From IMG/VR virus record IMGVR_UViG_3300028800_000002, positions 1 to 64,000 of that record: a stretch of DNA of 64,000 bases; one strand, given 5' to 3'. Source of the DNA: a virus. Position 1 is the stretch's first letter. The number at the start of each line of letters is the position of its first letter. The notes beneath the pieces were generated by a model. It was not told where the DNA came from. It ran no database searches and saw nothing but the letters and a program-made list of their open reading frames with translations. A program made the position numbers and the translations under genes. Shown one piece after another: positions 59,908-64,000 of the stretch.

Positions 59908-62900
59908 ATGTCTGAAAAACTTTTAGCTGATTGGTCTGAAGCCGACGGCATCCCTCGGTCCATTGCATTGACGGTGGCTAGCTACGCAGCGCTGATGGCT
60001 GCCACTGCGTTCCCTGGGAAAGCAGCGTTTGACGTCAGTGATCAGGCGAAGCTGGTAGAACTTGCAGATTGCCGACAGGTATGGAGGATGACAGCGTTCT
60101 CCCCACCTGCGTGGGATCTGGATGACGCAGGGCCCGACGATCATACGGCAGACTTCCAGGTGATTGGGGTGCTGGCAAGCTTGACCGGCTTAGCCTCCAA
60201 TGCGTTTGATGTAGGAAATGGGACGTTAGCTGCCGGAAAACGAGTTTTGTCGGTGGTCCCTGGTGGTTACCAAGGACTCTTCATTCTGTCGGCGAATGGC
60301 TCAAATTGGGATTTGACTAGAGCTCCTGATCTGTCTGCCGATGGGCAGGTGATCAATGGTGCTGCGGTGACAGTCCGCTTCGGTCAATTCTCAGGTAACT
60401 TATACGTTCAACTAGGGACGTCGCTGTCCACCTTGTCTTACGCAGCCCCTAGCAACTTGTCAACGTCAGCTGCCCCCACGCTCACAGGCCCATCATCGAC
60501 ACTATTTGACTTTAGCCAGTCCCAGACGGTCGAGATCATACCTCTGGCTGGGAATAATCCGGTGGCAGGTACTTGGGAAACTCTCACTGGTTTGACAGCC
60601 TCCAATGGACAACCTGATGCTGATGGGATTCCCAGGGCTACGGCTTTTACGGAGACAGGCACTGGCGTGAGGGTGGCTAACCATACACCCGGCAACGTCC
60701 CACAAGCAGGTTGGGTTCGCGCTAAGTTCTCATATCTCCCTGGGCCTGCGTTTGACCCGAAGCACCTGATCTTCATGATCTCCGGGTACCATTGGCTGCT
60801 GTTGCCCACGCTACAGAGTCTGAAGTATCCGGGCAGTGACGCGAACTACACCGTCTATGGGTTGAACGGGACGGTGTTGTACTACTACGGGTTCAAGTTT
60901 ACACCCCGTGGTAAGTGGATTGACTGTGAGTATGAAACGAACATAGCGGCTGCCCACGTGGACGTTGCTCAATTTTGTTCTTTTACCACGCGTGGAGTGT
61001 CGGCTGCCGCTAGGGCAGGCGTGATTATTTCTGCAAGCAATGTGCAGCTGCAACAGGATCGCGTTGTGTCCGTGACGCCTGTACGAGGAAGCACCGATTC
61101 TCTTTTAGCCCAGAGCACCGACACTGCTCGTCCTGTACTTGCACCTGATATTTGGTTTGGGCATCCGGCGTTGGTTGAGGGCTATGGGAACAATTGCGCT
61201 CTTACCAAAGATATAGCTGCTTGCACACTAGCAACAGTTGGCGTGGTCATTTGGGTGGGATGCATACATCCGTCGACTACCTCTAGGCAGATTTATTCTC
61301 TCAACGGCACCGTCAGTAGACTTGCGCCGGAGGTAGATCCGACGGGTTTCTGGAGAATATCGCGTACCGATGATGCTGGTGTGACGACCTCTCACCTTAC
61401 AACGCATCCTGTTGCTCCTGTTCCGGTGCATGTTGAAATTGAGCAGGGGCCTACTTCAGCGACTCTATACATCGATGGGTTACCAGCGTCTGGCGGTGTG
61501 CTGGCCACATCCACCGTAGCCACGTTTACGAGTCACACGTTATTCGGAGGAGATTCACAATCTGTTGTTGAAACGCTTTCTGAGGCGTTTGGCATGGCAT
61601 TGACTGCCGCCCAAGTTGCCTCGCAATGCGCTGAAATGCGTGCTATGGCCTATCTTCCTGCGAAATGGCCTGCACTGCTCAACTCTGGTCAGAGCAATGC
61701 TGTTACTGTGAAGGGAACTACAAAAGCCTTGGTGGGTAATGGGATCTTCGCGCACCCAGGGTACGCCTTGTATGCTGGAGACAACGGTGGCTACGCCACA
61801 ACGACTGGGTGGGATACTGATCCCATCACGGGCCCAACTGGTGGTGTAGGCATACGCCTTGGGTGGCAGGCAGAAGCACAGAAGAATAACCAGCCGGCAA
61901 TTGCTATCAATATTGCGCATGGTGGCGCCGCCATTACAGCCTGGGAGCCAGGCGGGGCGGATTATGACTACATAGCCACTACACTTGCCACAGCGTTAGC
62001 ATCCTTTGGAACTCATCTGATTAGCGTCGAGGACATATTTTGGACACAGGGTGAGTACGAATCCAATGACCCCGGTACGGTTGCAGGGTATTACGCTGGA
62101 AAGCTTACGGCACTGATAGCCTACTTGCGTAGTTTGCCAGGGGTCAACCCCAATGCTTCGTTTGGGATTCATCGCGTCAATGAGTGGCTTGGCCCCGGAA
62201 CATTGGTCCCCGTTGTTTCTTACATGAGCTCGGCCCTTGTTAGAGCGGATGAGGATTTAGTAGCCGCCACGGTACCTAATTGCTACAAGACTGACCTCAG
62301 TGGTGGTGCTCAGACCAATTGGTGCGTGCACTACTCCCCTGCACAATGCATTGAGATCGGTCGCATTGCTTGGCGGACGCGTCATCGGCAGCCAGCCAGA
62401 ATACAAATTATCGAGGCGGACAGGCCGCAGCGCGGTACCTGGGGAGCAACAGGCGGCTGCTTTGATTTTGAGCACAACGTTGTACTGTCTGGCACGAATG
62501 TTGTGTCGGTGGCCAGTACTGAGGGTACCGCCATTCTTACATCGGCTGGGTCCCCCGTGTTGACCACGGACCCATTGGGAGGCAAGAAGCGGGTCACTGT
62601 TGCTGCAGGTCGCTACCTGCAGAGTTTGGATTCTGTACGGTGGGGTGTCTATTCAGGTGCATCGTCATTCCTTATGGGCATGCTGTGGTGGATTGGCTCC
62701 GGTGGCGAGGAGAATTATGCAGTGCTGTCTTCTCTTGATATTAGTAATTCAGCGTTTCTCATCAAGAGCAACACCATCTATCGTCAAGCGTACAGGAACG
62801 GTGGAGGGTCGGCGCTGGTATTTGATGCCCCAGCAGTAGCAGCGCCAGGAACACAGCAATGGGCCGTATACGGCGGTGATGGGACCAATCTATTCGCCAT

Positions 62901-63102
62901 AGACTCGGCAGGAATTCGTATTGCTGTAGATACTACGGGGGCTAGGGTTGGTGTAGACCGCTTGATGGTCAATCAGGCTCACTACAACACCCAGTCTTGG
63001 GGTAACTTCTCGTTGCGACGGTTGTACATAAAGCAGAGTACACCAGCACTTGTATTCAGTGATGGCATTGACCTTGCCACGGCATTTAGCGCATTGTTTT
63101 GA
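59908..63102 (+). CDS. Tail fibre/spike with LamG-like and SGNH (SASA/CE6-like) esterase domains
   Basis: LLNSGQSNA (nucleophile Ser), HGGAAITAWEPGG, IFWTQGEYES, WCVHYS; LamG-like TLYIDG. Confidence 0.7.
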   Translation: MSEKLLADWSEADGIPRSIALTVASYAALMAATAFPGKAAFDVSDQAKLVELADCRQVWRMTAFSPPAWDLDDAGPDDHTADFQVIGVLASLTGLASNAFDVGNGTLAAGKRVLSVVPGGYQGLFILSANGSNWDLTRAPDLSADGQVINGAAVTVRFGQFSGNLYVQLGTSLSTLSYAAPSNLSTSAAPTLTGPSSTLFDFSQSQTVEIIPLAGNNPVAGTWETLTGLTASNGQPDADGIPRATAFTETGTGVRVANHTPGNVPQAGWVRAKFSYLPGPAFDPKHLIFMISGYHWLLLPTLQSLKYPGSDANYTVYGLNGTVLYYYGFKFTPRGKWIDCEYETNIAAAHVDVAQFCSFTTRGVSAAARAGVIISASNVQLQQDRVVSVTPVRGSTDSLLAQSTDTARPVLAPDIWFGHPALVEGYGNNCALTKDIAACTLATVGVVIWVGCIHPSTTSRQIYSLNGTVSRLAPEVDPTGFWRISRTDDAGVTTSHLTTHPVAPVPVHVEIEQGPTSATLYIDGLPASGGVLATSTVATFTSHTLFGGDSQSVVETLSEAFGMALTAAQVASQCAEMRAMAYLPAKWPALLNSGQSNAVTVKGTTKALVGNGIFAHPGYALYAGDNGGYATTTGWDTDPITGPTGGVGIRLGWQAEAQKNNQPAIAINIAHGGAAITAWEPGGADYDYIATTLATALASFGTHLISVEDIFWTQGEYESNDPGTVAGYYAGKLTALIAYLRSLPGVNPNASFGIHRVNEWLGPGTLVPVVSYMSSALVRADEDLVAATVPNCYKTDLSGGAQTNWCVHYSPAQCIEIGRIAWRTRHRQPARIQIIEADRPQRGTWGATGGCFDFEHNVVLSGTNVVSVASTEGTAILTSAGSPVLTTDPLGGKKRVTVAAGRYLQSLDSVRWGVYSGASSFLMGMLWWIGSGGEENYAVLSSLDISNSAFLIKSNTIYRQAYRNGGGSALVFDAPAVAAPGTQQWAVYGGDGTNLFAIDSAGIRIAVDTTGARVGVDRLMVNQAHYNTQSWGNFSLRRLYIKQSTPALVFSDGIDLATAFSALF

Positions 63103-63104
63103 GT

Positions 63105-63141
63105 AGCTAAAGAAAGGCCAGGCATTGCGCCCTGGCCTTTC
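63105..63141. terminator. Bidirectional terminator at the end of the tail module
   Basis: GAAAGGCCAGG/CCTGGCCTTTC 11-bp stem; minus tail TTTAGCT. Confidence 0.8.
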
Positions 63142-63144
63142 CGC

Positions 63145-63348
63145 CTATGCCGCTAGGGCCATTAGGCACATCAGGAAATGCTCGGTTTTGGTCATCAATG
63201 GGCTATGCGCTGTTGACCACGACGTTCCGGAGAGGCCGCAGTTTACGCAAGTCCACATTAGACCGTGTCGAAGTATCTCCCCTTTGCACGATGCACTCAT
63301 CGGTAACCTTTCTGCGTACTTGAGTGCAGGTTTCCTCAGTGCGATCAC
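63145..63348 (-). CDS. Small Cys-containing hypothetical protein
   Basis: GTG start overlaps the TGA of the -1-frame ORF; CVNCG motif; ends at a terminator. Confidence 0.55.
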   Translation of the reverse strand: MIALRKPALKYAERLPMSASCKGEILRHGLMWTCVNCGLSGTSWSTAHSPLMTKTEHFLMCLMALAA

Positions 63349-63539
63349 ACCAGTTCACACTGGAGAACTCGTTGTAGTAACAAGTCGAGATTCGGATCGT
63401 CCTGTACCAGGACCCCTAAGCGCACGGCCAGGGTTCTCAATTGGTTGTAGCCAAGTCCTAGAAGGTAGGCCTTGTCTACTTCAATCGTGTCTTGAACCCT
63501 GGCTCTGATGCAGTTGGGCCAGACCTCGACTTTTACTCG
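63345..63539 (-). CDS. Start-less -1-frame extension of the 63533 ORF (frameshift product)
   Basis: 64 codons, RVKVEVWPNCIRARVQDTIEVDKAYLLGLGYNQLRTLAVRLGVLVQDDPNLDLLLQRVLQCELV; reachable through G_GGA_AAC. Confidence 0.7.
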   Translation of the reverse strand, partial: RVKVEVWPNCIRARVQDTIEVDKAYLLGLGYNQLRTLAVRLGVLVQDDPNLDLLLQRVLQCELV

Positions 63540-64000
63540 TTTCCCTGGTCTAGCACCTCTTCATCCTCGCCACCTGGCGTGTTGGCTTCCAGGATGGTCT
63601 TGATGCCTGGGATCTCCTCAAGTGCCATGGACACAATCTCTTCGCGGCTCATTTGGCCCGCTGCCGCCTGCTCGAGGGAGAGTAGGGTCAAGGCGCTATT
63701 GAACATGACAGCTACGGAAAGAGCCTCGATGGAGGACTGCATTCCGCCCAAAGACCCTTCTACGTTTTCCGCCAGACCAGACATCCCTTCGCAGCGCTCA
63801 GAGATTGTTTTCAGTAGCTCCATGGTCTTGGAGGCCCCAGCGGCAACAGCCGCCGTGGCTGGGGATCGGGCAGCAGCTGGATCGGTGACTGGTGTTCTGG
63901 CCTCTGTTTCTTCCGGTTCCGCGGCGGCCGCTGGCTTTCTCGCAGTAGCGGCACCGGCCTTACCCGTGGCTGGTTGCCTGGAGGCAGCTGGCTTCTTACC
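63533..64000 (-). CDS. 5'-truncated protein with K/A/P-rich linker, helical domain and acidic tail
   Basis: Frame open from 64000 (GKKPAASRQPATGKAGAAT...) into the listed 96-aa ORF, so the real start lies outside the window. Confidence 0.8.
   Translation of the reverse strand, partial: GKKPAASRQPATGKAGAATARKPAAAAEPEETEARTPVTDPAAARSPATAAVAAGASKTMELLKTISERCEGMSGLAENVEGSLGGMQSSIEALSVAVMFNSALTLLSLEQAAAGQMSREEIVSMALEEIPGIKTILEANTPGGEDEEVLDQGNE

Follow-up and report, generated by a model that had tools for sequence, protein, structure and literature searches.

In the G/GT genes of phage lambda, a -1 slip of the ribosome on the heptamer G_GGA_AAG near the end of a phage gene yields, in a fixed ratio, a minor isoform that is extended at the C terminus. 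In dnaX of Escherichia coli, the heptamer A_AAA_AAG, a Shine-Dalgarno (SD) sequence about 10 nucleotides (nt) upstream and a local hairpin lead to the tau and gamma isoforms, which differ in their C-terminal domains, and a distal 3' element takes part in the -1 frameshifting of gene 10A/10B of phage T7. Here we describe a gene of an environmental phage for which the comparative sequence data make it very probable that programmed -1 ribosomal frameshifting produces two isoforms, of 222 and 285 amino acids (aa). The gene is found on the minus strand at the right edge of the analyzed window, i.e. the first 64,000 bases of the 186,443-bp phage record IMGVR_UViG_3300028800_000002, which has direct terminal repeats. 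Its open reading frame (ORF) extends beyond the window end, and we have taken positions 62501-72500 of the genome (L003) to cover the full gene. The mechanism is a known one; what is new is the gene family, its context in a recombination module, and how large the RNA element 3' of the slip site is and how far it spans.

The lambda type of frameshift is conserved across many phages, and almost all annotated phage frameshifts are located in tail-chaperone genes, on which annotation pipelines and predictors have been trained; -1 frameshifting is also known in other phage genes, among them those for capsid, lysin and polymerase (PMC10885494). The heptamer G_GG.A_AA.C is one of the frequent ones at the frameshift sites of insertion sequence (IS) elements and has a low efficiency in E. 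coli, G_GG.A_AA.A being more efficient (PMC4066793). For IS911, the downstream structure is given as a three-way junction (Rettberg 1999, as cited in PMC4066793). Long-distance interactions have been described in the frameshifting of plant RNA viruses such as barley yellow dwarf virus (BYDV) and the umbravirus-like RNAs (PMC10602861).

Read 5' to 3' on the minus strand, the zero-frame gene ends with ...GAC CAG GGA AAC GAG TAA. An earlier note on this DNA, made from the letters and a list of ORFs, had proposed a frameshift here on the basis of a correctly phased heptamer just before the stop, and this heptamer can be read directly on the minus strand. The elements of the putative recoding cassette are the following.

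63533-64201 of the genome (63533..64000 in the window), minus strand: zero-frame gene, 222 aa, its last 155 codons inside the window (ORF list and translation)
63539..63545, minus strand: slippery heptamer G_GGA_AAC, in X_XXY_YYZ phase in the zero frame
63533..63535, minus strand: zero-frame stop TAA, one codon past the heptamer, overlapping the invariant Val codon GTA of the -1 frame
63345..63545, minus strand: extension in the -1 frame, GGG AAA plus 64 codons (RVKVEVWPNC...LQCELV) plus the TGA at 63347-63345
63556..63559, minus strand: SD-like GAGG, 10 nt 5' of the heptamer

The -1 frame opens only five codons 5' of the heptamer, after a TGA, and its translation up to the TGA at the other end confirmed the 64 open codons that had been counted. 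The absence of an early start was borne out as well, the first ATG, GTG or TTG being a TTG at codon 35, counting from GGG. The predicted trans-frame product is 285 aa long (residues 1-221 plus 64). Taken alone, the pattern in this single sequence is weak, because an in-phase XXXYYYZ within the last five codons is found in 7 of the 397 ORFs that reach 100 aa or more in this genome, and it is the comparative data that carry the case.

A search of 5.8 billion proteins retrieved three relatives at 92, 75 and 70% identity, all of them 220-223 aa long and with the same stop. In the DNA of these relatives AGGGAAACGAGTAAA is invariant, and most substitutions downstream of it are at the third position of -1 frame codons. 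With a profile of the extension, eight loci of greater distance were obtained from JGI metagenomes and further ones from IMG/VR, and several of the homologous loci are found on contigs of 186-195 kb. A hidden Markov model (HMM) of the body, i.e. the zero-frame protein, matched 330 representatives at E <= 0.001 among 1.84 billion proteins (the family has at least 330 clusters at 50% identity); the DNA of four distant representatives was obtained. In total, 18 distinct homologous loci or lineages were assembled for comparison, with body identities down to about 25%, and they come from independent samples and assemblers (ENA, JGI, Logan, NCBI and IMG/VR). Neither the body nor the extension had a tblastn match among GenBank phages, and a profile of the close-homolog alignment had no match in viral contigs. 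In 185,579 species genomes of bacteria and archaea no match to the extension profile turned up, and therefore neither a prophage copy nor a clue to the host. We found no description of the gene family or of its RNA element in the literature.

A first feature shared by these loci is the heptamer itself. G_GGA_AAC or G_GGA_AAA, in phase and 0-5 codons 5' of the stop, is present in 17 of the 18 loci, including L008-L015, L017, L018, L020, L024 and L026, which are distant loci from other metagenomes; the exception, L022, has G_GGG_GAA with a run of five G. In the homologs that could be aligned there, the position of the zero-frame stop relative to the extension is also fixed. The heptamer persists despite C-terminal tails that are otherwise unrelated, acidic in some proteins (...EGNE) and basic in others (...KGK). 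Codon usage across 14 loci makes clear that the conservation is at the level of nucleotides: GGA is the rarest Gly codon in these genes (12%) yet is the one used at 13 of 14 slip sites, AAA accounts for 22% of the Lys codons yet is found at every site of the Lys type, and the codon before the GGA of the heptamer always ends in G (baseline 31%). In the much larger set of proteins, we examined the best 150 of the 330 HMM representatives. A Gly followed by Asn or Lys appears within the last eight residues in 122 of them, compared with 4.6% of background windows, and therefore the slip site is probably family-wide, as judged from these tails; the other 28 have tails without GN or GK. Thus the conservation in homologs that the earlier note had set as a check of its proposal was found.

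One of the distant loci has a peculiar arrangement. In L018 (P0063; L018:2070-2162, L019) the heptamer G_GGA_AAA is located five codons 5' of the stop and the -1 frame ends after 30 codons (...VAVAPWPGTMWPAADEEYDDVDE), with a convergent gene closely 3' of it.

The second line of evidence is the coding constraint on the -1 frame, also set as a check in the note. Uncorrected ratios of nonsynonymous to synonymous differences (pN/pS) are 0.39 for the -1 frame vs 0.90 and 1.50 for the other two frames, each of which contains 1-6 stops over the extension. Across lineages the extension is better conserved (52-98% identity) than the body (25-94%). It is made of a conserved WPNC.R segment followed by a HeH-like module (Y..LR.LAV.LGVLVQDDP..D.L.QR), and the conserved residues V.V.TWP.C.R begin right after the slip site. 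There is no start codon in the conserved first 14 codons, and codons 3-16, located 5' of any possible start, have a pN/pS of 0.54. From the upstream -1 stop to the WP.C.R segment, ATG, GTG and TTG are all absent in 11 of 12 loci and also in four further ones. Gene callers left the stretch of about 200 nt as an empty gap in every locus examined.

These same data bear on whether the -1 frame could be a separate small gene, expressed from a non-canonical start, e.g. the ATC and ATT triplets of codons 12 and 20, or from a TTG or GTG further inside, perhaps coupled to termination of the upstream gene. Both rare starts do exist at these codons in the window, the zero-frame stop is only a few nt away, which makes termination-reinitiation geometrically possible, and in one divergent homolog (P0006) the gene caller gave an ORF of 50 aa with M at the position of Val17. 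However, the conserved V.V.(T)WP.C.R lies 5' of every candidate start and is under purifying selection, the positions of the rare starts are not conserved across lineages, and inspection of the window sequence detected no SD-like sequence 5' of the candidate internal starts. A separate gene would also leave unexplained why the heptamer is so strictly conserved in phase and against codon usage. We consider this explanation very unlikely.

Downstream of the heptamer, the earlier note had pointed to two complementary octamers, AAGTCGAG (63532-63525) and CTCGACTT (63389-63382). Both were located at these positions and turned out to be part of a much larger, covarying RNA domain of about 150 nt, with the following helices.

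63519..63532, minus strand: helix P1, 5' arm (AAGTCGAGGTCTGG), starting 6 nt 3' of the heptamer
63382..63395, minus strand: helix P1, 3' arm (CCGAATCTCGACTT), some 125 nt 3' of its partner arm
63494..63502, minus strand: helix P2, 5' arm (CCAGGGTTC), from RNAalifold and pair counts
63428..63436, minus strand: helix P2, 3' arm (GAACCCTGG), from RNAalifold and pair counts
63399..63413, minus strand: hairpin P3, arms 63409-63413 and 63399-63403, from RNAalifold and pair counts

The covariation tests were based on a gap-free alignment of 189 columns and 14 lineages (A8). The two arms of P1, both of which are also protein-coding, have kept their complementarity where each of them has changed, as in GTCGAGGT/..CTCGAC of the window, GTCGAGAC/GTCTCGAC in L008, ATCGAGAC/GTCTCGAT in L010 and GTCGGGGT/GCCCCGAC in L022. 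In the alignment, 80.6% of the P1 cells are paired and 7 of its 14 pairs have compensatory changes, compared with 3.0 +/- 1.0 in shuffles (0 of 500 reached this number), and sliding the 3' partners by 1-3 columns drops the pairing to 20-48%. RNAalifold independently identified P1, together with the inner helix P2 and hairpin P3. P2 has 9 pairs, 6 of them with compensatory changes and 91% of cells paired, and P3 has 5 pairs with 89% of cells paired and little covariation. For the structure as a whole, 90.4% of cells are paired (82.2 +/- 1.0 in shuffles). Compensatory changes are seen in 11 of 23 pairs, a number that none of 500 shuffles reached (6.1 +/- 1.4), and the covariation score amounts to 0.401 vs 0.241.

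The stability of the folded RNA gives a similar picture. The 161-nt RNA of the window folds at -65.8 kcal/mol (z -4.49), with its first pair at nt +7 and none of 200 shuffles as stable; the 14 aligned homologs have z values from -3.1 to -7.4, and L024 and L026 reach -7.6 and -6.8. The structure emerges only on folding the full stretch of about 160 nt: the first 75 nt after the heptamer, folded alone, are not significant (z -1.1 to +1.1), and RNAalifold gave nothing significant on the first 100 nt (-2.9 kcal/mol). No Rfam family matches the element, frameshift elements included. The spacer of 6 nt between heptamer and P1 is within the approximately 5-9 nt expected of a -1 frameshift stimulator, and from these features the domain is probably the stimulator of the slip.

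A structure so unusually stable and covarying could, in another reading, be the only thing that is conserved here, as a stabilizing or regulatory element of the mRNA at the 3' end of the gene, the open -1 frame being a by-product from which no trans-frame protein is made. Along these lines, synonymous sites right after the heptamer vary less (pS 0.52 vs 0.67). This leaves out of account, however, that 17 of the 18 lineages keep a stop-free frame of 64-68 codons where the other two frames are interrupted, and that the third positions of the -1 frame vary in 49 of 50 cases and the second positions in 24 of 50. Besides, the peptide models as a HeH fold and weakly resembles the N-terminal domain of its own protein, and some of the compensatory changes in the RNA affect amino acids at tolerant positions only. 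We consider this reading very unlikely, too, about as much so as a separate gene. Finally, the record is metagenome-derived and single-base indels at short homopolymers do occur, yet an assembly or sequencing error hiding a single ORF of 285 aa, or an extension that is a decaying remnant, is effectively refuted by the two-frame layout shared by 18 independently assembled loci (an identical error is not credible at such divergence), by the purifying selection on the extension and by the lack of any in-frame fused homolog, either among longer proteins matching the extension or among the best 150 of the 330 family representatives, in which the extension HMM had no C-terminal match.

Several observations weigh against programmed frameshifting as we propose it. 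G_GGA_AAC is a heptamer of low efficiency in E. coli (PMC4066793). The SD-like GAGG is located 10 nt upstream of the heptamer, as the earlier note had it, and GAGG, GGAG or AAGG is found 10-17 nt 5' of the heptamer in 11 of 15 lineages, a count confounded by the Glu-rich tails of these proteins; in the remaining 4 of 15 no such motif is present. A stimulatory role of the element is possible. The RNA structure begins 9-12 nt after the heptamer in the clade L011-L015, the minimum-energy fold of L017 has 0 of the 14 P1 pairs, and the very distant L020 has a local 14-bp hairpin after the heptamer instead of the long-range helix; from the deviations of L017 and L020, the putative stimulator therefore differs between members of the family. 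For the covariation tests, the structure came from the very alignment on which it was tested, and the sequences are related, which inflates some of the measures, and the RNA structure could in principle serve another purpose, e.g. mRNA stability. In L018 the heptamer is followed by an extension of no more than 30 aa that lacks the HeH module, and in this lineage the extension domain may have been lost and the slip site retained.

Our preferred reading of the locus, programmed frameshifting, would work as follows. Most ribosomes translating the 222-aa gene would terminate at the TAA (63535-63533). A fraction would slip back one base on G_GGA_AAC, with tRNA-Gly moving from GGA to GGG and tRNA-Asn from AAC to AAA, and would read 64 more codons in the -1 frame to give the 285-aa isoform. 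The junction would be ...DQGN-RVKVEVW (...DQGN-RVKVEVWPNCIR), or have K replacing N if the A site is empty at the time of the slip. The slip would probably be promoted by the stable RNA domain, in which P1 starts 6 nt past the heptamer and pairs with a partner some 125 nt further on, the inner helices P2 and P3 falling inside the coding sequence of the extension itself; the nearby zero-frame stop and the SD-like GAGG may contribute. What the data show is a conserved heptamer, a conserved -1 ORF that has no start and is under purifying selection, a covarying RNA and a likeness in fold; the slip itself and its efficiency are inferred.

Both parts of the protein have been modeled. The 222-aa protein has an N-terminal HeH-like domain of three helices, a disordered linker rich in K, A and P, and a long helical C-terminal region. 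In the AlphaFold2 model of the body (built from an alignment of 11 sequences) helices are found at residues 15-65, with a predicted local distance difference test (pLDDT) of about 90, and at 115-207, and residues 68-121 are disordered. The extension was modeled with moderate confidence (pLDDT 62), with helices at 25-29, 33-42 and 53-64. An exhaustive structural comparison placed residues 23-66 of the extension closest to the N-terminal domain of Rho (1a62_A, residues 1-44; Z 5.7, root-mean-square deviation 1.6 over 43 aa), with numerous SAP and LEM domains next (Z 3.4-4.4), which backs the loose likeness to Rho-N and HeH domains suggested in the earlier note. The best match of body residues 13-67 was also 1a62_A (Z 6.4, root-mean-square deviation 1.6 over 48 aa); at Z scores of this size, a common arrangement of helices can be enough for small helical motifs to match.

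In sequence, a profile comparison aligned residues 26-48 of the extension with residues 16-38 of the body (E 0.0016, low probability), and the extension HMM weakly but consistently matched N-terminal residues in about 90 of the best 150 of the 330 representatives. With HeH-like matches in both the N terminus and the extension, the long isoform would have HeH-like modules at both ends. Pfam gave no match to Rho_N, SAP or HeH for either body or extension at E up to 0.1, and no match for 13 extension sequences at E up to 10; as neither module is recognized, what we describe is a resemblance in fold and not membership in these families. Foldseek with the whole body model found nothing in the PDB at E <= 0.001, a look-alike search of the ESM Atlas gave no usable match, and sequence-profile searches of the PDB returned only weak coiled-coil-like matches.

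As judged from the models, the added domain is small and probably DNA-binding. Both isoforms would share the N-terminal HeH (Rho-N/SAP-like) domain, the basic disordered linker and the long helical region, and the long one would gain a second HeH-like module at its C terminus. The protein might thus act as a nucleic-acid-binding or bridging component of the phage recombination module, with the ratio between forms with one and two HeH modules set by the efficiency of the frameshift.

Two features of the linker deserve mention in their own right. In L014 (Ga0265297_10000229) the body protein is 281 aa long and its linker is expanded, with long poly-Asp/Glu runs alternating with basic repeats of the RKPAKSKGKPA type. 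A short R-x-P motif (R75 and P77 in the window protein) is invariant family-wide despite its disordered context.

The genomic neighborhood of the gene is that of recombination or DNA metabolism and not of tail assembly. On the same strand, in 5' to 3' order, there are a UvsX/RecA-like protein, a Holliday-junction resolvase, a 127-aa protein, a Cas4-like exonuclease, a 216-aa protein, RusA, a 124-aa HeH/Cys protein and the frameshifted gene, and the order from the Cas4-like exonuclease onward recurs in distant loci. The earlier note was thus right in placing the site away from the usual tail-chaperone context, as the gene is not located between tail tube and tape measure genes. We found no membership of the protein in tail-chaperone families of Pfam or PHROG; its sole PHROG match, to a major head protein family, was weak (E 0.0059) and covered residues 25-191, which comprise the linker and the adjoining helical region. 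The genes immediately flanking the cassette are these.

64198-64572 of the genome (L003:1698-2072), minus strand: 124-aa upstream neighbor with a HeH-like start (NYTELYQMCIRAGLAILPTTPRDMLIAYL) and a Cys cluster
63145..63300, minus strand: downstream Cys-rich gene (51 aa, MSASCKGEILRHGLMWTCVNCG..., MSASCKGE...), with a conserved ATG and an AAAGG motif upstream

In seven representatives (P0061, P0070, P0072, P0083, P0098, P0117 and P0146) the 124-aa protein is fused to the N terminus of the frameshifted protein, which suggests that both work together. The Cys-rich gene is part of the context and outside the recoding cassette. The GTGA overlap by which the note had coupled it to the extension is physically present in the window, but it is not conserved: in homologs the stop at this place is TAA, and 1-nt indels follow within approximately 40 nt. 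The most likely start of the downstream gene is therefore the conserved ATG at 63300, and a longer version of 67 aa, with a GTG start at 63348, is unsupported by the homologs. Further along, at 63113-63140 (both strands), a GC-rich hairpin (AAAGGCCAGG-GCGCAAT-GCCTGGCCTTT) followed by CTTT separates this convergent minus-strand operon from a plus-strand ORF of 1064 aa (59908-63102). It looks like a bidirectional intrinsic terminator, and the homologous loci carry a different hairpin at this position.

Three further ORFs of this genome, all located beyond the window, also have an in-phase slippery heptamer at their end and a long open -1 frame after it.

137792-139111 of the genome, plus strand: ORF ending in GGGAAAT, -1 frame open for 143 codons
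143342-143692 of the genome, plus strand: ORF ending in CCCAAAG, -1 frame open for 92 codons
114851-115219 of the genome, plus strand: ORF ending in AAAGGGA, -1 frame open for 176 codons

They could simply be genes that overlap, or else additional candidates for frameshifting, e.g. the tail chaperone. ARAGORN detected no tRNA gene in the 186-kb genome, and hence no phage-encoded tRNA that might modulate slippage.

The locus adds a well-supported case of recoding in a functional module other than tail assembly, conserved across hundreds of uncultured lineages of large phages, and in this protein family the extension is to be annotated as a joined coding sequence. The covariation-supported RNA domain is a possible object of study as a long-range bacterial frameshift stimulator, and the recombination or replication of the phage may be affected by the ratio between the two isoforms of what is probably a nucleic-acid-binding protein. 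In its broadest form our interpretation is a tentative one, for which the chances are somewhat under even: a large, unannotated protein family of environmental phages of about 190 kb would be recoded family-wide through a low-efficiency heptamer driven by an unusually large RNA domain of about 150 nt, the closing helix of which spans the coding sequence of the protein domain added with its help, and the resulting ratio would set the balance between one-HeH and two-HeH, potentially DNA-bridging, isoforms working with the recombination machinery. If true, recoded phage genes would gain a new functional class, and bacterial systems a new architecture of frameshift stimulator.

Among the known systems, lambda G/GT is similar in having a conserved -1 slip at G_GGA_AAN near the end of a gene, leading to an extended isoform. 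It differs in the last base of the heptamer (G in lambda, C or A here) and in its place between tail tube and tape measure genes, whereas here the gene belongs to a recombination module that also encodes RusA, a nuclease of the Cas4-like type and a UvsX-like recombinase. To our knowledge, lambda G/GT needs no large covarying downstream RNA domain such as the one present here. With dnaX, the locus shares a heptamer combined with a downstream structure and, in the window, an SD-like GAGG, and probably two isoforms of one protein of DNA metabolism; the dnaX frameshift truncates the product, whereas here it would extend it, and the SD-like element is not universally conserved here. In IS911 and the orfAB genes of the IS3 family, there are likewise an SD-like element, a heptamer, a stop near the slip site and a downstream structure beyond a simple hairpin. 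The product there is a transposase; the closing helix here reaches over about 125 nt, with the coding sequence for the added domain inside. The models of the extension and of body residues 13-67 superpose on the HeH fold (helix, extended loop, helix; about 40 residues) of SAP, LEM and Rho N-terminal domains, although neither matches Rho_N, SAP or HeH in Pfam. Finally, the frameshifts of T7 gene 10 and of BYDV and the umbravirus-like RNAs also depend on sequence far downstream, as would the one proposed here; there the distance is of hundreds to thousands of nt, and here it is about 125 nt within one ORF.

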